Positions 9,910 to 45,157 of a stretch of 64,000 nt of DNA are shown here, piece after piece. How positions within the stretch are numbered: the first letter of the stretch is position 1; every line of letters starts with the position of its first letter. The translations under genes were made by a program, and so were the position numbers. The stretch spans positions 80,776-144,775 of the forward strand of contig VGVV01000001.1 in assembly GCA_016873895.1 (NCBI GenBank), read 5' to 3'. This DNA is from Ignavibacteria bacterium (GTDB lineage Bacteria > Bacteroidota > Ignavibacteria > Kapaibacteriales > Kapaibacteriaceae). The notes under the pieces are model-generated. The model was not told the DNA's origin, did no database searches, and saw only the letters and a list, made by a program, of their open reading frames with translations.

Positions 9910-10562
9910 CGCTTGAAGACGGTTTCGAAATTCTGCTGCTGGATCGCGCATAGTTCTTCTGTGGTAATTCCTCGCACGTTTGCAACGGCAGCATAGACTT
10001 CGTGAATTGGTATCTCATCCACGTCTGTCTCTAGCAACAGACGGTCTGCTGGACACATTTTTAGTGCATCAATCAACGACGCAGATTCCTTTAGAACGGC
10101 AGCACCGAATGATACATACATACCTGCATCTAAGCATTGCTTGGCAAGATCGGCACCCTTCACAAATCCATGGAGCATCCAGGGCTGCGCAGGGTTGATG
10201 AACTTGTGAACACGAAGCAGTTCATCATGCGCCTTCACGCAATGAATGACAAGGGGCTTCGAGACACGCTCGGCAAGGTCTGCCATGTATTCAAACGCGT
10301 CTACTTGATGTTGCCACAATGCATCACATGCACGATCGATTCCAACCTCGCCGATTGCAAGCACCAGTTCTTCCTGTGCAAGATCCTCAGTGATATCTGC
10401 TGCATCTCGCCAATCGCTCGTGACATCCCAAGGATGCAAACCAACAGTGCATATCCCATCGGTTTCAAAGACCTCAGTTGAGGCAGTGATGCGAATACTA
10501 ACCAGAGTAGTTGTCGCTGAGTCGGCGGAACGACGATGCGAGTGGGCGTCGAAGTACGTCAT
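9906..10562 (-). CDS. TatD-family metal-dependent hydrolase (short form)
   Basis: FDAHSH, GEVGIDR, VIHCVKAHDE, LHGF and LLLETD metal-ligand blocks in canonical order. 218 aa. Confidence 0.75.
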   Translation of the reverse strand: MTYFDAHSHRRSADSATTTLVSIRITASTEVFETDGICTVGLHPWDVTSDWRDAADITEDLAQEELVLAIGEVGIDRACDALWQHQVDAFEYMADLAERVSKPLVIHCVKAHDELLRVHKFINPAQPWMLHGFVKGADLAKQCLDAGMYVSFGAAVLKESASLIDALKMCPADRLLLETDVDEIPIHEVYAAVANVRGITTEELCAIQQQNFETVFKR

Positions 10563-10647
10563 CTGAAGATTGTGGATAGGACCTGAACTATGAGTAACTG
10601 TTGGATGTGCAGTGGTCTAAAATTAGAAATGATATGCGAAACTGACC

Positions 10648-11058
10648 TCATACATCAGGAGCTCCAGTATCTGAATCTCCAGATTCGATGTCTAAACGGG
10701 CACGTATTGCCAAAGCTTCATACTTCTGCCTGAACTCATCTAGCTGGGACTCTTCCATTTCTTCCAGATCAAGCAGGGCATTATAAGCCCCTTGCGTGGC
10801 GCGTATCAACTCATCAAGCTTGAGGTGGATTGCTTCGGTGTCGCGGTTTTGGGTGTTTTGGATGAAAAACACCATCAGAAACGTCAGAATTGTTGTTGCG
10901 GTATTGATAACCAGCTGCCATGTGTCGCTGAACTCAAAAATGGGCCCTGTATCTACCCATGCAAGTATGAGCATCACTGCACCAACAAAAACGATGGGCC
11001 TACCTGTAATTCTGGCCGTGCTCTTTGCTATTGCTGAATACCAAGACGAAGCGTTCAT
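10648..11058 (-). CDS. low-affinity iron permease family membrane protein
   Basis: DTWQLVINTATTILTFLMVFFIQNTQNRDTEAIHLKLDELIRA is the family's conserved core. Start moved to ATG 11058 (MNASSWY...) because the track's extension to 11127 is encoded by the groEL terminator hairpin. Confidence 0.7.
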   Translation of the reverse strand: MNASSWYSAIAKSTARITGRPIVFVGAVMLILAWVDTGPIFEFSDTWQLVINTATTILTFLMVFFIQNTQNRDTEAIHLKLDELIRATQGAYNALLDLEEMEESQLDEFRQKYEALAIRARLDIESGDSDTGAPDV

Positions 11059-11095
11059 AGACGAATTTACTACCGGACGGCAACCATACAAGTCC

Positions 11096-11135
11096 AAACA
11101 AAAAGGGGCCGAATGGAACATCTCCATCCGACCCC
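11096..11135 (-). terminator. Rho-independent terminator of groES-groEL
   Basis: On the minus-strand RNA: GGGGUCGGAUGGA-GAUGU-UCCAUUCGGCCCC followed by UUUUUGUUUG, beginning 19 nt after the groEL stop. Two positions pair as G.U only on the minus strand (they are C.A and A.C on the plus strand), so the hairpin is strand-specific. Confidence 0.75.
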
Positions 11136-11154
11136 ATAAACCGACGTGAAGATC

Positions 11155-12801
<1,647 letters not shown>

Positions 12802-37605: not shown

Positions 37606-38424
37606 ATGTCTGTTGTACCTAGCACACGAAAACGCGTAACAACTCGCCGGCTAGGCGATATGAAGCGGGCGGGGATGCCGATTGCCTGCCTTACGGCGTA
37701 TGATGCAATCAGCGCATCTATACTCGATGCCTCGGGTGTGGATGTATTGCTTGTTGGCGACTCCGTGGGCAACGTAGTGCAAGGACACGACACGACAATC
37801 CCGGTAACACTCGAGCATATGATTTATCACACACAAGCTGTGGTGAGATCAGTAAGTCAGGCTCTGGTAGTAACAGACATGCCATTCATGTCCTATCAAG
37901 TGTCACCTCAAGAGGCGTTCCGCAACGCTGGCCGCCTTATGAAAGAAGCAGGATCTGGTGCCGTGAAACTCGAGGGTGGAATGCGGGTTACAGAGTCCGT
38001 ACGCCTTATGACAGAGAATGGCATTCCTGTAATGGGACACCTTGGTCTTACCCCCCAAAGTATTCATCAGTTCGGGTCGTATAGGGAACGTGGCTCAACA
38101 CCAGAAGAAGCAGAAATAATGAAGCGAGACGCTTTGGCGCTGCAAGAAGCAGGTGCTTTTGCTCTGGTGTTGGAGAAGATACCCTCTGGTTTAGCAAAGG
38201 ACATTACCGCACTGTTGCACATTCCGACTATTGGAATTGGAGCCGGACCCGACTGTGATGGACAAATTCTGGTCTGGACCGACATGATGGGTATGTCTAC
38301 GGAGTTCCGTCCACGGTTTGTCCGCAGATACGCCGAGTTACATTCGATCATGGTTGATGCAGCCTCTCGTTACGTCAGCGACGTCAAGAATCATGCATTC
38401 CCAACCACCGAGGAAAGCTACTAA
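37606..38424 (+). CDS. panB: 3-methyl-2-oxobutanoate hydroxymethyltransferase
   Basis: [36 protein letters not shown] and the KLEGG block. Start at MSVVPSTRK. Confidence 0.9.
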
Positions 38425-38816
38425 TGCAAGCATTGCTCATCATATGCGCGTTCAGTAGCTTGCTCATGCTGGCATCTTGTGATGGCTCCGTGATCACCAA
38501 TCCGCAGGATATAACATTCCCAGACAGCAATGTGAGCTTTCGAGGCCAGGTTCTTCCGTTTTTGGCACTCTCATGTGGCGTCGGTGGATGCCATGGAGAC
38601 ATAAGCCCAGCTGCCGGGATTCGGTTAACTTCGTATTCAACGCTCTTGTTCGACAGACCGAATTTGGTTGTGCCGGGCAAGCCCGACGAAAGTCTTATCG
38701 TGCAAGTCCTCGAAGGCGATCTGCTTCACCCATGGGGCAACCTGCGGACAACTGTATCGAGTTCGCAGATTCGTGGCATGCGCAAGTGGATTGAAGAGGG
38801 CGCAATTGACAACTAA
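38424..38816 (+). CDS. small lipoprotein with PSCyt1-like (Planctomycete cytochrome c-like) domain carrying CX4CH instead of CXXCH
   Basis: Lipobox LMLASC. FRGQVLPFLALSCGVGGCHG...LVVPGKPDESLIVQVL...IRGMRKWIEEGA follows the PSCyt1 pattern (C..CH, vvPGkPeeS, WIeeGA) as I remember it. The ATG shares 1 nt with the panB TAA. Confidence 0.5.
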   Translation: MQALLIICAFSSLLMLASCDGSVITNPQDITFPDSNVSFRGQVLPFLALSCGVGGCHGDISPAAGIRLTSYSTLLFDRPNLVVPGKPDESLIVQVLEGDLLHPWGNLRTTVSSSQIRGMRKWIEEGAIDN

Positions 38817-38847
38817 ACACCAGAACATTCTTTCGGAGTCTCGTTAC

Positions 38848-39867
38848 ATGTCCACATTTCGAAACCTGCTACTAACACTCACGGGCATAGCCATCATAGT
38901 TGGCTGCGAGCCGAAGGCAATCCCAGTTCCTATCGAGGGCCTGAAGGTTGAAAAAGATGAATTGCGCAAGTTCGAGATTAAGGTACCAGCCAACTGGTAT
39001 GTGCAAACACGCAAGGGAGATATCATCGTTGCATTTAGCTCGAAGGCACATGTCAATCGCTTTACTCAGTTTAGTAAGGGGCGTGGTGGTGCCAAGGTCG
39101 AGATTCGAGCTATCGCCATGGACAGTACAACAAACATCGACTCTCTTGTTAAGCGTTCAAAGGTAGAGTTCGAAGACGGGTTAGATCGATACACGAAATC
39201 GGTATCAACATTGGGTGGCAAGCCTGGCCAAAAACTCTACGTTGAATTCGACCAAGAGGACGGAAAGTTTGTCTCGGAATCATATTTCGCTGAGGATGAT
39301 TCAGTGATCACGATGGTAACATTTGCGGCCTTTGGAAACACCTACCAGGATTACGCAGAAGAATTCAAGCAAATACTAGCTTCTGTGAAGTTGGCCAAGA
39401 AGCTTGTACCTCTTGCGCCTGGTGTTGCACAAGGTGCAGGTGGAACTGTGCCGCCAAGCGATACACTTCGACCATTCAATGCTGGTATGTATGCCATCAG
39501 CTATCCAAGCAACTTCTCTACGAAAAAGGGTTCCGCTGGTGCATTGAGCTCGACAGTTTTCGTAGGCGCAAGACTTGACTGCTCGATTCAGGTTGATGTT
39601 ATCAATGCAAAAGATCAAAATGATCTCGATGTTATTGTTAAGCAGAATGAATCGCGCTATCCAGGATCAACACAATCTGCCTCAACACTTGGTGGACAGC
39701 GTGCAGTGATGTTCTCGTACAATCCAACCGCTGCTGTTGCTGCACGTGCATATTTTGCTGTCAAAGGCGACAAGATGTATCGTGTTACGGTAAACTGGAA
39801 TAGGGCGGAACAGAATATGTACCTTCCAGTTTTTGACAAGTGTATCCGGTCGATTCGCATAAACTGA
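38848..39867 (+). CDS. hypothetical lipoprotein, two tandem PsbP/DcrB-like halves (tentative)
   Basis: Start re-called to MSTFRNLLLTLTGIAIIVGC (lipobox). Two similar halves begin FEIKVPANWYVQ and YAISYPSNFSTK. The track start at 38668 lies in the upstream gene. Confidence 0.4.
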   Translation: MSTFRNLLLTLTGIAIIVGCEPKAIPVPIEGLKVEKDELRKFEIKVPANWYVQTRKGDIIVAFSSKAHVNRFTQFSKGRGGAKVEIRAIAMDSTTNIDSLVKRSKVEFEDGLDRYTKSVSTLGGKPGQKLYVEFDQEDGKFVSESYFAEDDSVITMVTFAAFGNTYQDYAEEFKQILASVKLAKKLVPLAPGVAQGAGGTVPPSDTLRPFNAGMYAISYPSNFSTKKGSAGALSSTVFVGARLDCSIQVDVINAKDQNDLDVIVKQNESRYPGSTQSASTLGGQRAVMFSYNPTAAVAARAYFAVKGDKMYRVTVNWNRAEQNMYLPVFDKCIRSIRIN

Positions 39868-39880
39868 TACTCTTGTCTGC

Positions 39881-41050
39881 ATGAAGTCGCTCCTCATTAT
39901 CGCCGTCGCATTGCTAGCCAGTGCGACAGCATTTTCAATTCCGCAGTTCTCAGCGATCTCGGGCAATCGTTGTATTAACTGCCACGTAGCCCCTTCCGGA
40001 GGGAGCGTGCGCAACGATCTTGGCTGGTATAGCTGGTACGATGTTGGAGCAGTTCCACGATCCAACAAGCTCTTTGATTGGTTTTACGACAAAGATTCTT
40101 CCAATCAATTCTTCGATGGCAAGGTGATTCTCGGAATGGACGCACGCATTCAGAGCACACGATCGTTTGTTAGCGAGTCTTCTCCAAGAAGACTGTTTCC
40201 TATGCAGGCCTCGTTTTACTCTGCCTACAATCCCATTCCTGAGGTCACGATAGAAGGTTCTGTAAACCTTGCAACGCTTGCAATCCAGGGGGTGCCGCCG
40301 TATTCCGGCATGAGAGCCGCAGCAATCTCTGCTATCATTGCTCCCTCGTTCTCATTGCCGTCGGTGCGCATAGGGGTGTTTCGTCCGAACATAGGTATGC
40401 GTTATGACGACCACACAATGGCCCCCTACTCATACACGCTTGCCACACAGCGAAAGACGGTGATTGCGCCCGATTGGTCCGAAGTAGGTGCAGAAGTCTC
40501 ATATGAAGGCCTAAAATGGCTATCCCTTCAGGCGGGCGTATTCGGTAGCCAAGGGTTGTCGCAAGTTCATATCTCCGATGGCGAACAAACATTTTCTGTG
40601 GTAGATGGCAATCAACCAACGCTTACTGCTCGAGCGGTTGTATGGCCTCGCCTCTTTAACGACAAGCTTAACACATGGTTTGGAGCCTCTCTTTTACGGA
40701 ACAACCACTTTGGCATCACCAGCGGATTTGCTGGTATCGGATTAAGCGATGAGTTTTCTCTTATGCTCGATTACACGCGTATCGAGTATGATGATAGATT
40801 CGAATCCCAGTCGATGATGGCAGAGCTGATGTATTCTGCAACCACTTGGCTGTTCCCATATGTTAGGGCGGAACGGTACACGACAGATCCATACAATGCA
40901 TCGGGTTCGTTTCTTAGTAACGCGGCAACACTTGGGGCACAGATTTTTGTTATGCCATACATTGAAGTTCGCCCTGAGTACAGAATCTGGGACACGTGGA
41001 AACCCGGTTATTCATCTCGTTGGAACGTACAATTACACTTCTTTTATTGA
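39881..41050 (+). CDS. Cyc2-like fused monoheme cytochrome c / outer-membrane beta-barrel (porin-cytochrome) candidate
   Basis: Signal peptide MKSLLIIAVALLASATAFS. A single CXXCH (C31-INC-H35, nt 39971..39985) lies within about 15 residues of the mature N-terminus. About 350 aa follow without hydrophobic helices, rich in alternating aromatic/polar stretches, ending ...WNVQLHFFY (terminal aromatic typical of OMP barrels). Confidence 0.55.
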   Translation: MKSLLIIAVALLASATAFSIPQFSAISGNRCINCHVAPSGGSVRNDLGWYSWYDVGAVPRSNKLFDWFYDKDSSNQFFDGKVILGMDARIQSTRSFVSESSPRRLFPMQASFYSAYNPIPEVTIEGSVNLATLAIQGVPPYSGMRAAAISAIIAPSFSLPSVRIGVFRPNIGMRYDDHTMAPYSYTLATQRKTVIAPDWSEVGAEVSYEGLKWLSLQAGVFGSQGLSQVHISDGEQTFSVVDGNQPTLTARAVVWPRLFNDKLNTWFGASLLRNNHFGITSGFAGIGLSDEFSLMLDYTRIEYDDRFESQSMMAELMYSATTWLFPYVRAERYTTDPYNASGSFLSNAATLGAQIFVMPYIEVRPEYRIWDTWKPGYSSRWNVQLHFFY

Positions 41051-41066
41051 TCATTCGGAGCGCAGC

Positions 41067-41366
41067 ATGTTGAATAAGATCCTGAATACTATTGGCATCA
41101 TCGGCATTCTAGGTGGCGGTGCTTTGTGGGTTAAGGACGGAAGGCATGTGTTCTCTAAGGATCGCGAAGAGGTTGTGCGCGAAGTCAAAGACGAGCTCTT
41201 TGGCACTATTCGTAGGGAGACCGAATTCGTTCCTGCCTTCAAATTTGGACTCCTCCCCGTAGATGCAACAATTGCAGACGTTCCCCGCTGCTATGCCTTC
41301 GTTGGCGGTATGTCTGTTGCCCTTATCGCCTTTGCATTATGGCGCAAACGTTCGGGCAACCAGTAA
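41067..41366 (+). CDS. small two-TM membrane protein, hypothetical
   Basis: MLNKILNTIGIIGILGGGALWV...CYAFVGGMSVALIAFALW (99 aa). The track start at 40860 lies inside the upstream gene. Confidence 0.4.
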   Translation: MLNKILNTIGIIGILGGGALWVKDGRHVFSKDREEVVREVKDELFGTIRRETEFVPAFKFGLLPVDATIADVPRCYAFVGGMSVALIAFALWRKRSGNQ

Positions 41367-41408
41367 CTCTTGTACCTTGTACCTCGTAACTCCATAACCC
41401 CTCTTCCC

Positions 41409-41882
41409 ATGCCTACTAACTCTCGCCGTTCGTTCCTCCAACAAGCAGCTGCTTCTGTTGGACTTGTTCTTTCTGCATCTGCTGTTGCCAGTTTGATAGC
41501 TGGCTGTGAGAAAGACGAGACAAACCCCATCACTCCAGGTAAGACGTACGATGTGAATCTTACATCATTGTCAGAACTTGCCACCGTGGGCGGCATCGTA
41601 CAAACCGTTGTTGCCGGTGTAAACGATAGCGAGCCAGTTTTTATCTCACGTATCGATAATGCGTCGTTCGTGGTTTTCAGCACCATCTGTACACATTCCG
41701 GATGTGGAGTTGACCTACCACTGGATGCAATTGCTAATTGTGTTTGTCCTTGCCATAAGGCAGAGTTTTCGCGCACAAACGGAGCTGTACTCAAGCAGCC
41801 TACCTCTGGCTCTGCAACAGATCTTCCGAGATACACCTGCACATACAACGCGAGTACAAACGTGCTCACGATCACGGTCTGA
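41409..41882 (+). CDS. Rieske [2Fe-2S] protein with twin-arginine signal and lipobox
   Basis: MPTNSRRSFLQQAAASVGLVLSASAVASLIAGC (Tat motif plus lipobox). Rieske boxes CTHSGCGV and CPCHKAEF. The track start at 41370 is TTG. Confidence 0.8.
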   Translation: MPTNSRRSFLQQAAASVGLVLSASAVASLIAGCEKDETNPITPGKTYDVNLTSLSELATVGGIVQTVVAGVNDSEPVFISRIDNASFVVFSTICTHSGCGVDLPLDAIANCVCPCHKAEFSRTNGAVLKQPTSGSATDLPRYTCTYNASTNVLTITV

Positions 41883-43747: not shown

Positions 43748-43779
43748 AGAGCCATCCGGTATTCTGCCGCGATGGCTCT
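43748..43779 (+). terminator. hairpin downstream of rpoZ (possible terminator/attenuator)
   Basis: AGAGCCATC-CGG tattctg CCG(c)GATGGCTCT followed by TGTTGT. The right arm contains ATG 43772, so the more likely coaBC start is ATG 43790. Confidence 0.4.
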
Positions 43780-43789
43780 TGTTGTCTAC

Positions 43790-45157
43790 ATGAACATACT
43801 GCTTGGCATAACGGGTAGCGTTTCAGCGTACAAAGCTCCTTGGCTGGTGCGAGATCTTCGCAAGGCCGGACACGACGTGCGCGTTGTCATGACGCCCTCA
43901 GCGCGTCAGTTCGTTGCCCCCTTGGCTCTTGAAGCGGTTTCCCTCCATCCGGTAATCATCGATCCCTACGACCCCTCAATTCAGGAAGGGGGCTCCTGGC
44001 ATGTTCACCTGGCACAATGGGCGGATGTAATCCTGATTGCCCCTTGCTCGGCCACAACTCTGGCACGCCTGGCTACAGGTCTGTGTGACACAGCGTTGAT
44101 GACCGTAGTTTGCTCACGCAGCGCTGATACAGAGCTGATAGTGTTCCCAGCGATGGATACCGACATGTGGCTTCAACCCTCGACCAAACGCAATGTTGAT
44201 CAGCTGCGCAACGATGGCATCACCGTGGTAGACCCCGAAGCAGGCGAACTTGCTTCAGGCCTCGTAGGCCAAGGCAGATTGCCAGAGATTGAGAAGATTA
44301 TCGAAATAGCAGCGAGCAGCGAGCAGCGAGCAGCGAATAGCGAGCAGCGAGCAGCGAGCAGCGAACAGCGAGTAGCGAGCAGCGAACAGCGAGTAGCGAG
44401 CAGCGAACAGCGAGTAGCGAGCAGCGAACAGCGAGTAGCGAGCAGCGAACAGCGAGTAGCGAGCAGCGAACAGCGAGTAGCGAGCAGCGAACACGATGAT
44501 TTGAGTTCGCTGTTCGCTGCTCGCTGCTCGCTGCTTATCACCGCTGGCCCAACCCACGAGTGCATCGACGCTGTCCGCTCAATCGTCAATCATTCAACGG
44601 GCACGATGGGGTTTGCTCTGGCTGAAGCTGCGCAAAAGCGTGGCTACCTCGTAACGTTGGTAACGGGGCCGACCAACCTTCCAACACCGTTTGGTGTAGA
44701 ACGCATCAACGTGGTAAGTGCCAAGGAGATGTACGAGGCAGTGATGAAGCATAACGATGTGGACGACTTCATCATGGCTGCTGCGGTAGCCGATTTCACG
44801 CCATCAAATCCGTCGGCGCAAAAGATCAAAAAAGAACAACTCGGAAGCAACCTCTCGATTGAGCTTACACGTACTCACGATATTCTCGCTGAGATCGGCA
44901 AGAGTAAGGCAGAGCATCAGCGCGTTGTTGGATTCGCCCTCGAGTCTGATGATGTGATTGAGAACGCAAGGCGCAAACTCGTATCTAAGAACGCCGACAT
45001 GATCATTGCCAATCAGGTAGGCGTGGCGGACAGTGGATTTGGCGCTGGACAGAATACAATTACAATCGTTACGAATAGCCAAGATCCAATGTGCTACCCT
45101 GCGATGTCAAAACGTGCATGTGCCGAGGTCATCCTCGATGCATTGGAGAATCTGTGA
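43790..45157 (+). CDS. coaBC: bifunctional phosphopantothenoylcysteine decarboxylase / phosphopantothenate-cysteine ligase, with repeat-encoded linker insertion
   Basis: The CoaC part has GITGSVSAYKAP...PAMDTDMW. The CoaB part has LITAGPTHECIDAVRSIVNHSTGTMG...AAAVADF. Between them lies AASSEQRAANSEQRAASSEQR(VASSEQR)x6 VASSEHDDLSSLFAARCS. Alternative start ATG 43772. Confidence 0.9.
   Translation: MNILLGITGSVSAYKAPWLVRDLRKAGHDVRVVMTPSARQFVAPLALEAVSLHPVIIDPYDPSIQEGGSWHVHLAQWADVILIAPCSATTLARLATGLCDTALMTVVCSRSADTELIVFPAMDTDMWLQPSTKRNVDQLRNDGITVVDPEAGELASGLVGQGRLPEIEKIIEIAASSEQRAANSEQRAASSEQRVASSEQRVASSEQRVASSEQRVASSEQRVASSEQRVASSEHDDLSSLFAARCSLLITAGPTHECIDAVRSIVNHSTGTMGFALAEAAQKRGYLVTLVTGPTNLPTPFGVERINVVSAKEMYEAVMKHNDVDDFIMAAAVADFTPSNPSAQKIKKEQLGSNLSIELTRTHDILAEIGKSKAEHQRVVGFALESDDVIENARRKLVSKNADMIIANQVGVADSGFGAGQNTITIVTNSQDPMCYPAMSKRACAEVILDALENL
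44311..44492 (+). repeat. tandem heptanucleotide array, 26 x AGCGAnn (21-nt phased; six perfect copies of agcgagcagcgaacagcgagt)
   Basis: Counted directly: 26 contiguous 7-mers (agcgagc/agcgaac/agcgagt/agcgaat). The 21-nt super-unit is perfect from 44353 to 44478 and is in frame with coaBC. Confidence 0.95.
44505..44535 (+). repeat. inverted copy of the heptamer array (gttcgct gttcgct gctcgct gctcgct gct)
   Basis: Reverse complement of agcgaac/agcgagc units, separated from the direct array by 12 nt (acgatgatttga). 44479..44492 pairs perfectly with 44512..44525. Confidence 0.9.

Follow-up and report, generated by a model that had tools for sequence, protein, structure and literature searches.

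A cytochrome-porin family distantly related to Cyc2 is genetically linked to Tat-exported Rieske lipoproteins in Ignavibacteria and Kapabacteria

The cytochrome-porin Cyc2 is the main genomic marker for inferring iron oxidation or extracellular electron exchange in metagenomes. Ignavibacteria and Kapabacteria are frequently found in sediments, in the mats of hot springs, and in wastewater. Here, we describe a locus of five genes (g1–g5) on a 64-kb stretch of the genome of an Ignavibacteria bacterium (contig VGVV01000001.1, positions 80,776 to 144,775; hereafter the window). Its two central components are g3, which encodes a cytochrome-porin remotely homologous to Cyc2, and g5, which encodes a lipoprotein with a Rieske domain and a signal for twin-arginine translocation (Tat). 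We regard it as fairly probable that the locus represents an envelope electron-transfer module with g3 and g5 as its core pair.

The published criteria for Cyc2 comprise a signal peptide and a single CXXCH heme motif, a 16-strand porin, for which OprO and OprP were the reported templates, a length of at least 365 amino acids (aa), the motif AXPXFAR[Q/K][T/Y] upstream of the heme site, and the motif PXL 4 residues past CXXCH (Keffer et al. 2021, PMC8406198). The motif AXPXFAR[Q/K][T/Y] was described as unique to Cyc2, and candidates that lack it were dropped (PMC8406198). Cyc2 proteins oxidise Fe(II) (PMC8406198); among the relatives of the pore encoded by g3, no others have been characterised biochemically. 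Canonical homologs have already been reported from Ignavibacteriaceae (PMC6344600), and the Cyc2 of iron oxidisers is horizontally mobile (PMC12442345).

Other known conduits (MtrCAB, MtoAB, PioAB, and Geobacter Pcc) follow the same logic as the proposed module, in that an outer-membrane barrel and redox proteins at one or both of its faces, one of them a lipoprotein, carry electrons across the outer membrane. They differ in their 26-strand barrels, which are threaded by separate deca- or multiheme cytochromes (PMC8406198), whereas the locus in the window encodes a 16-strand barrel with a fused heme domain, one or two putative hemes, and an iron-sulfur (Rieske) component; a gene for a multiheme cytochrome is absent from the g1–g5 locus. 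Two described Rieske proteins invite comparison with g5. Cyanobacterial PetC3 (Veit et al. 2016, cited in PMC12341915) is a Rieske lipoprotein that stands alone and resembles g5 in having one small Rieske domain of the bc/b6f class, a Tat signal, and a lipid anchor; cytochrome b is not adjacent in either case. [quoted passage not shown] AioB, the small subunit of arsenite oxidase, is likewise a Tat-exported Rieske protein with a significant sequence match to g5; it passes electrons one by one to cytochrome c or azurin in the periplasm, but the molybdopterin catalytic subunit AioA is not encoded at the g1–g5 locus.

The genes of the locus have the following positions in the window:

38424-38816, plus strand: g1, PSCyt1-like lipoprotein, 130 aa, lipobox LMLASC
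38848-39867, plus strand: g2, tandem-domain lipoprotein, 339 aa, lipobox IIVGC
39881-41050, plus strand: g3, 16-strand porin with a fused monoheme cytochrome, 389 aa, Sec signal peptide
41067-41366, plus strand: g4, protein with two transmembrane helices (2-TM protein), 99 aa, two hydrophobic helices
41409-41882, plus strand: g5, Tat Rieske lipoprotein, 157 aa, NSRRSFLQ followed by the lipobox LIAGC

The listing of open reading frames (ORFs) thus agrees with a first-pass annotation of the window, which had called five consecutive plus-strand genes, all with export signals (the lipoboxes of g1, g2, and g5, the Sec signal peptide of g3, the hydrophobic helices of g4, and the twin-arginine motif of g5), and had assigned redox motifs to three of them (CGVGGCH in g1, CINCH in g3, and CTHSGC plus CPCH in g5). 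Strings of the type C-x(2-4)-CH turn up by chance in other ORFs of the window, so a single heme-like motif proves nothing by itself. The intergenic gaps measure 31, 13, 16, and 42 nucleotides (nt); the TAA stop codon of the preceding panB and the ATG start codon of g1 overlap by one A (TAATG), and a gene for an RsmB-type methyltransferase begins 2 nt past the end of g5. It is this spacing that suggests co-transcription, because a scan for promoters and terminators (36.5-45.5 kb), whose coverage excludes promoters of the Fibrobacteres–Chlorobi–Bacteroidetes (FCB) group, gave the same counts as in shuffled sequences.

The product of g3 has a signal peptide (residues 1-19, MKSLLIIAVALLASATAFS) and a mature N-terminus that reads IPQFSAISGNRCINCH. 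Its heme motif (C31-H35, nt 39971-39985), the sole CXXCH in 389 aa, is followed by VAPSGGSVRNDLGW. Among the members of the g3 family (71-72 sequences, 28-81% identity), the invariant positions include not only the heme motif (C31, C34, and H35, with CXXCH kept in 71 of the 71 complete sequences) but also G40, R44, and G48, P107-M108-Q109, D176-D177-H178-T179 (nt 40406-40417), R364-P365-E366, Q384, and H386. M108, H178 of the DDHT motif, and H386 are candidates that could provide the axial heme ligand.

A barrel fold for the product of 39881-41050, suspected in the first-pass annotation, is supported by structure prediction. In the AlphaFold2 model, based on an alignment of 32 sequences (predicted local distance difference test [pLDDT] 79.5; predicted TM-score [pTM] 0.79), DSSP assigns 16 long beta strands to the region of residues 82-388. 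The N-terminal 75 residues are of low confidence, which is to be expected because the heme domain was modelled without heme. Foldseek matched the model to 16-strand general porins and phosphate porins in the PDB (E 1e-10 to 1e-8), among them 2o4v (OprP) and 4rjw/4rjx (OprO) with TM 0.54-0.56. Only this fold comparison was informative; a search of PDB sequences with the g3 profile retrieved nothing even at E 10, and neither g3 nor g4 matched any Pfam or NCBIfam family. A database search with g3 yielded 182 relatives, and those that bear names are hypothetical proteins; their named sources are all metagenome-assembled genomes (MAGs) of Ignavibacteria or Kapabacteria. An exhaustive search with the g3 profile yielded 967 clusters at 50% identity (E up to 1e-3).

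The porin-cytochrome superfamily has a further, distant branch in Ignavibacteriaceae, with 562 database relatives, which is marked by the motif LPRFAL-x-QG-x-x-C-x-x-CH-x-NPTGG and retains DDHT. At two loci of this branch (L132 8001-12255 and L134 8001-12359; loci of relatives are numbered with the prefix L), the pore gene precedes genes for a 615-aa tetratricopeptide repeat (TPR) protein and ClpX, and there is no Rieske gene.

The second component of the core pair, g5, carries a twin-arginine motif (R6-R7) and a lipobox with Cys33, so that the mature lipoprotein would begin with C-E-K-D-E-T (nt 41505-41522). Judged by its sequence, g5 falls into the bc/b6f structural class of Rieske [2Fe-2S] proteins. 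It matches the Pfam family Rieske (PF00355) with 34.1 bits (cut-off 20.3) and contains both ligand boxes, C94-T-H-S-G-C99 (box I, nt 41688-41705) and C113-P-C-H116 (box II, nt 41745-41756); its scores against TIGR01409 (15.8 bits) and the NCBIfam model arsenite_ox_S (31 bits) are slightly below the cut-off (16.7) and below the cut-off (95.65), respectively. The closest solved relatives are a stand-alone Rieske protein of 110 aa (5cxm, E 3.8e-14), which we take to be cyanobacterial PetC3, the Rieske subunits of the b6f and bc1 complexes, and AioB. A gene for cytochrome b is absent from the g1–g5 locus. Rieske centres of the bc type are usually of high potential.

Conservation of the Rieske ligands, on which the first-pass annotation had made its reading depend, extends to the orthologs. 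The two cysteines and two histidines are invariant in an alignment of seven sequences (A2), and a scan with regular expressions found both boxes in 39 of 43 close orthologs; of the other four, three have box I only (at least one of them a fragment of 112 aa) and one has neither. The disulfide cysteine pair is usually present and has been lost jointly in the ortholog at L004. By the same kind of scan, the twin-arginine motif is present in 40 of the 43 close orthologs and in every Rieske ORF that adjoins the pore gene in metagenomic loci, and most of the pore-adjacent Rieske proteins that were inspected have a lipobox. Two loci encode unusual Rieske partners of the pore. At L176 (ORF from about 2195), the partner is a Tat lipoprotein in which three Rieske domains are arranged in tandem and the second reads CPCD instead of CPCH; at L209 (ORF from about 1525), the Rieske domain is joined to a class I cytochrome c in a single protein.

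The strongest kind of evidence for a functional coupling of pore and Rieske protein is a linkage that is kept through rearrangement. Around relatives of g3, 11 loci from long assemblies and 80 loci from a metagenome scan were examined. In 10 of the 11 assembly loci, the g3 relative (37-54% identity) is directly followed by a g4 homolog and accompanied by a Rieske gene; four loci keep the entire block panB, g1, g2, g3, g4, g5, rsmB, whereas the others have unrelated flanks and a YceI gene placed ahead of the Rieske gene. Partners were counted in the 42 metagenomic loci with at least 1.5 kb upstream and at least 3.5 kb downstream of the pore gene:

Rieske gene, same strand, adjoining the pore gene: 41 of 42 loci
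g4: 30 of 42 loci
YceI: 21 of 42 loci
g1-like domain: 14 of 42 loci
g2: 7 of 42 loci

The pore and Rieske genes occur in at least nine gene orders, and in some of these, the Rieske gene is located directly upstream of the pore gene. The conserved unit is therefore the cytochrome-porin with the Rieske protein, usually together with the 2-TM protein; YceI often replaces or adds to g1 and g2. The synteny that the first-pass annotation had proposed to test for all five genes holds for the pair of pore and Rieske protein; the full order is specific to the clade of the window, where it is enclosed in the panB–rsmB block, because g2 is present in so few loci.

Of the accessory genes, g1 matches the Pfam family PSCyt1 (PF07635) with 24.6 bits (cut-off 22) and has a variant heme motif of the type C-x4-CH (CGVGGCH, residues 51-57, nt 38574-38594) in place of CXXCH. 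C51, C56, and H57 are invariant in an alignment (A4) with the orthologs at L001, L004, and L005 and the first domain of a 304-aa Kapaibacterium protein, and the ortholog at L131 reads CATGGCH; with the motif kept in all five orthologs, the assumption of the first-pass annotation that it would be conserved holds also for g1. In distant loci, the g1-related domains beside the pore have CX3CH (L002) or CXXCH (L006, L129). The recurrence of such PSCyt1-like heme proteins beside the pore provides a possible second heme carrier.

The tandem duplication proposed for g2 is evident in the similarity of its N- and C-terminal halves (28% identity and E 8.5e-5 with blastp; 89.5% with HHalign). The domains are possibly of the PsbP/DcrB type, as g2 matches DcrB of Pfam with 22 bits (below the cut-off of 27.2), the DcrB match recurs in three of five orthologs, and one of the five matches PsbP (E 0.0034). 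A profile search of g2 against PDB sequences retrieved nothing meaningful, and a single-sequence AlphaFold model has a pLDDT of 32.8, which is too low for use. There is no redox motif in g2, and the gene is restricted to loci in the panB context (the seven metagenomic loci listed above); none of the distant loci has it.

The third accessory gene, g4, has neither a conserved Cys nor a conserved His in an alignment of seven sequences (A3), in which W21, F45-G46-T47, L62, and G81 are invariant; it is therefore probably structural, as a tether or scaffold in the inner membrane. Three further orthologs were found only with a hidden Markov model (HMM), and two of them depart from F-G-T (FGD in L131 and FDE in L128). 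The positive-inside rule predicts an N-in/C-in topology with a periplasmic loop of about 50 aa that contains the conserved motif (D/N)-(P/E)-x-F-G-T.

In the reading that we favour, electrons would pass singly between the periplasm and a substrate that is extracellular or accessible through the pore, via the porin-bound heme and the Rieske cluster, provided that both proteins are loaded with their cofactors and form a complex. In the clade of the window, g1 would be a further one-electron carrier toward the respiratory chain, g4 would tether the complex to the inner membrane, and g2 would be a non-redox scaffold. The existence of a Rieske–cytochrome c fusion and of a three-Rieske lipoprotein among the partners of the pore fits a role in electron transfer. 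An inward direction of electron flow, from Fe(II) or another extracellular reductant, is favoured because of the analogy with Cyc2, and Rieske centres of the bc type, with their usually high potential, would fit. Oxidation of Fe(II) by the module would be a matter of pure analogy with Cyc2.

Several observations weigh against this reading. The attachment of a heme to CX4CH in g1 is putative, g4 is devoid of redox ligands, and the link to the inner-membrane chain is hypothetical. Genes for respiration, cytochrome maturation, or carbon fixation are absent from the 64-kb window. The 42 loci include near-duplicates, which reduces the number of independent cases, and the linkage to Rieske genes does not extend to the distant Ignavibacteriaceae branch, where in the two loci examined the pore has the TPR protein and ClpX as neighbours instead. 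In the clade of the window, moreover, the module is set in a vertically conserved housekeeping block that reaches from panB to rsmB, unlike the horizontally mobile Cyc2 (PMC12442345), which suggests a constitutive rather than a lithotrophic role.

The same housekeeping context and the absence of respiratory neighbours would fit an outward or homeostatic flow of electrons. Here, electrons would move from the cell to the envelope or the surface and would not yield energy from Fe(II); they may reduce Fe(III) or Cu(II) ahead of assimilatory uptake, supply reductant to secreted surface enzymes, or maintain envelope redox homeostasis, a role that has been proposed for PetC3. YceI proteins are binders of polyisoprenoids or quinones, and their presence as partners in half of the 42 loci (21) would agree with such a role, as would the type IX-secreted proteins with Reeler domains or rich in immunoglobulin-like (Ig) domains that follow the module in L128, L130, and other loci, and neighbours such as an Nramp transporter (L129) or a TonB-dependent receptor with a two-component system (L006). 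However, Rieske centres of the bc type, being usually high-potential, are poor reductants for ferric oxides, the module encodes neither a reductase nor a quinol dehydrogenase, and Fe(II) oxidation is the activity of Cyc2, the one kind of relative of the pore that has been characterised (PMC8406198). We consider the outward direction, which is the main alternative, rather unlikely, though not negligible.

A second alternative, that g3 is a divergent but true Cyc2 iron oxidase and the locus an ordinary Cyc2 iron-oxidation operon, can be judged by direct comparison. A reference set of 89 full-length proteins was obtained by scanning GTDB genomes for DNA that encodes PxFAR[QK][TY]-x3-CxxCH; it includes proteins from Mariprofundus, Zetaproteobacteria, Acidithiobacillus, Sideroxydans, Gallionellaceae, Ignavibacterium album, and Kapabacteria. 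The alignment of the profile of the g3 family with this set (HHalign) is significant (probability 97.6%, E 3.8e-12, 334 columns) and remains so when both heme domains are cut off and only the barrels are compared (91.5%, E 8e-7; 0.2-0.4% in controls with reversed sequences). The resemblance extends to the architecture. Like Cyc2, the g3 family has a signal peptide that ends in Ala and is followed by x-P-x-F, with a spacing of 10 residues from Pro to Cys, and g3 has the same very short N-terminal domain with a single CXXCH ahead of a 16-strand barrel of the OprO/OprP type; the overall lengths are alike (about 390-480 aa), and the 389 aa of g3 exceed the published minimum. Motif-defined canonical Cyc2 genes occur also in Kapabacteria, Ignavibacteria, and Melioribacteraceae, and homologs from Ignavibacteriaceae have been published (PMC6344600); both points speak for this alternative.

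By contrast, the defining motifs of Cyc2 are missing. In place of PXFAR[Q/K][T/Y], g3 has P-Q-F-S-A-I-S, and the family reads PQF-[ST]-[LA]-[LI]-[ST]; in the positions that replace A-R-[Q/K]-[T/Y], the counts are S 56/72, L 61/72, L/I 57/72, and T/S 60/72. The consensus past the heme motif is V-x-x-Q-G-G-G-L-R-N-x-L-G-W, without a conserved P-x-L, and published pipelines would discard g3. With an HMM built from the 89 Cyc2 proteins, g3 scores 13.2 bits and its family 11-25 bits, whereas Cyc2 proteins score 129-418 bits; screens with HMMs of known Cyc2 sequences would thus very probably overlook the family. Invariant motifs peculiar to the g3 family are GGG-x-RN-x-LGW, which comes after the heme site, PMQ, DDHT, RPE, and QLHxFY, of which DDHT, PMQ, and QLHxFY have no counterpart in the aligned Cyc2 consensus. 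The g3 family is confined to the classes Ignavibacteria and Kapabacteria and is vertically inherited in at least one clade, and the partners of g3, a Tat Rieske lipoprotein and a 2-TM protein, differ from the Cyc1, rusticyanin, or periplasmic cytochrome c that accompany Cyc2. On the strength of these profiles and motifs, g3 belongs to a family that is a distant sister of Cyc2; the two are remotely homologous, but g3 falls outside the published definition of Cyc2. Of the Cyc2-like character that the first-pass annotation had assigned to g3, the fusion of a monoheme cytochrome with a 16-strand porin and the remote homology stand, whereas the identity with Cyc2 does not.

Nor is a small stand-alone Rieske lipoprotein characteristic of canonical Cyc2 loci, as far as these were examined. 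Rieske matches are present in 5 of about 120 such loci, and in four of these, the Rieske gene is followed by an ORF of roughly 380-570 aa that possibly encodes cytochrome b; the fifth match (L034) runs off the end of its contig and lacks the disulfide cysteines. An extension of the Rieske link to canonical Cyc2 was therefore rejected, since the setting differs from that in the window, and we consider it very improbable that the locus is an ordinary Cyc2 operon. The Cyc2 loci near a Rieske gene (L097 1978-5983, L085 1978-6467, L029, and L017) stem from Desulfobaccales, Planctomycetota, Terracidiphilus, and Eisenbacteria; at L097, a protein with five CXXCH motifs follows as well.

That the genes are functionally unrelated, with g3 a general diffusion porin, its CXXCH incidental, and the clustering a result of genome collinearity, is scarcely credible, because even though the cluster in the clade of the window lies in a collinear housekeeping block and short heme-like motifs arise by chance in other ORFs, CXXCH is invariant down to 28% identity, the Rieske linkage persists despite rearrangements and differing flanks, and partners with a cytochrome c fusion or multiple Rieske domains exist.

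Within the favoured envelope electron-transfer module, the location of the Rieske protein deserves separate consideration. The signal for surface export of lipoproteins in Bacteroidetes has been experimentally defined as C-X-K-(D/E)2-X in positions +1 to +6 (Lauber et al. 2016, PMC5080379), and the mature N-terminus of g5 fits this pattern. Among the 43 close orthologs, a regular expression detected the lipobox in 35, of which 28 read C-E-x-D-E; more distant Rieske partners have C-E-[TSM]-N-E or C-E-S-D-T. The export motif is absent from the mature N-termini of g1, which reads C-D-G-S-V and has no acidic motif, and g2. About 12 other lipoproteins of these genomes were checked for the motif, among them a SusD homolog that reads C-D-Q-N-F; this sample is too small to show whether the lineage uses the signal. 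In one lineage, the Rieske protein of the module has no lipobox but Ig-like domains and a type IX C-terminal domain (Por_Secre_tail, 42.4 bits, cut-off 27). Together with the type IX-secreted Reeler or Ig-rich proteins encoded after the module in several loci, these features suggest that the Rieske protein may lie at the cell surface. It may thus not be a periplasmic relay in place of Cyc1 or rusticyanin, the relay that it would replace according to the first-pass annotation.

We tentatively propose, as a possibility rather than a probability, that the Rieske protein is located on the outer face of the outer membrane, where it caps the pore, or is secreted by the type IX system in some lineages. 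If so, g5 would be exported by Tat in its folded state, lipidated, and flipped outward via C-X-K-(D/E)2 (with type IX secretion as the route in some lineages) and would cap the cytochrome-porin as SusD or BtuG cap their own barrels. The resulting wire would lead from the extracellular substrate via the [2Fe-2S] cluster and the porin heme to a periplasmic cytochrome. A PetC3-like periplasmic location is at least as likely. In a variant for loci of the YceI type, YceI could carry quinol in the periplasm and be oxidised there by the Rieske centre.

In loci of the YceI type (L128, L130, L149, L151, L158, L191, L196, L201, L204, and L206), the region downstream of the module encodes large proteins of 720-930 aa that are rich in Ig domains and, in L130 and L158, proteins of 270 aa; the coordinates are 10140-12932 in L128, and 10002-12788 and 12871-13683 in L130. 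The 270-aa protein of L130 matches the Pfam family Reeler with 27.4 bits. All have C-termini of the type IX kind and an N-terminal motif G-C-x(1-4)-C-H. Its interpretation as a c-type heme site was rejected as improbable, because the spacing varies from C-x-CH to C-x4-CH; it may instead be another metal or disulfide motif, and these proteins are not counted as cytochromes here.

Two further features of the window concern its gene calls. An ORF of 194 aa on the minus strand (41291-41875) overlaps nearly all of g5 and is probably a non-coding shadow ORF. Farther downstream, the coaBC/dfp ORF (43772-45157, plus strand) contains a 21-nt tandem repeat (44311-44493, 8.7 copies, 96% matches). It is translated into SSEQR(A/V)(A/V) heptads that lie in the linker joining the flavoprotein domain to the DFP domain, and it brings the protein to 461 aa, compared with 403-423 aa in its orthologs.

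The literature searched contains no mention of the sister family of g3, of a pairing of Cyc2 with a Rieske lipoprotein, or of a surface Rieske protein, and, in agreement with the first-pass annotation, we found no report of this combination of genes. Although canonical Cyc2 was already known from Ignavibacteriaceae (PMC6344600), the fused cytochrome-porin with its new set of partners, foremost the near-obligate Tat Rieske lipoprotein, is new, as is possibly its topology. The module would be a compact system of two to four proteins. If the Rieske protein is indeed at the cell surface, no extracellular Rieske protein would precede it, and the module would be the first conduit for extracellular electron transfer that is not multiheme but contains an iron-sulfur centre; iron-sulfur proteins would then join the multiheme cytochromes as extracellular redox carriers. 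The sister family is large (about 970 clusters at 50% identity), labelled hypothetical, and without a Pfam or NCBIfam model. Because motif filters discard it and the Cyc2 HMM barely detects it, surveys based on Cyc2 would probably overlook any electron exchange that Ignavibacteria and Kapabacteria may carry out with this family.

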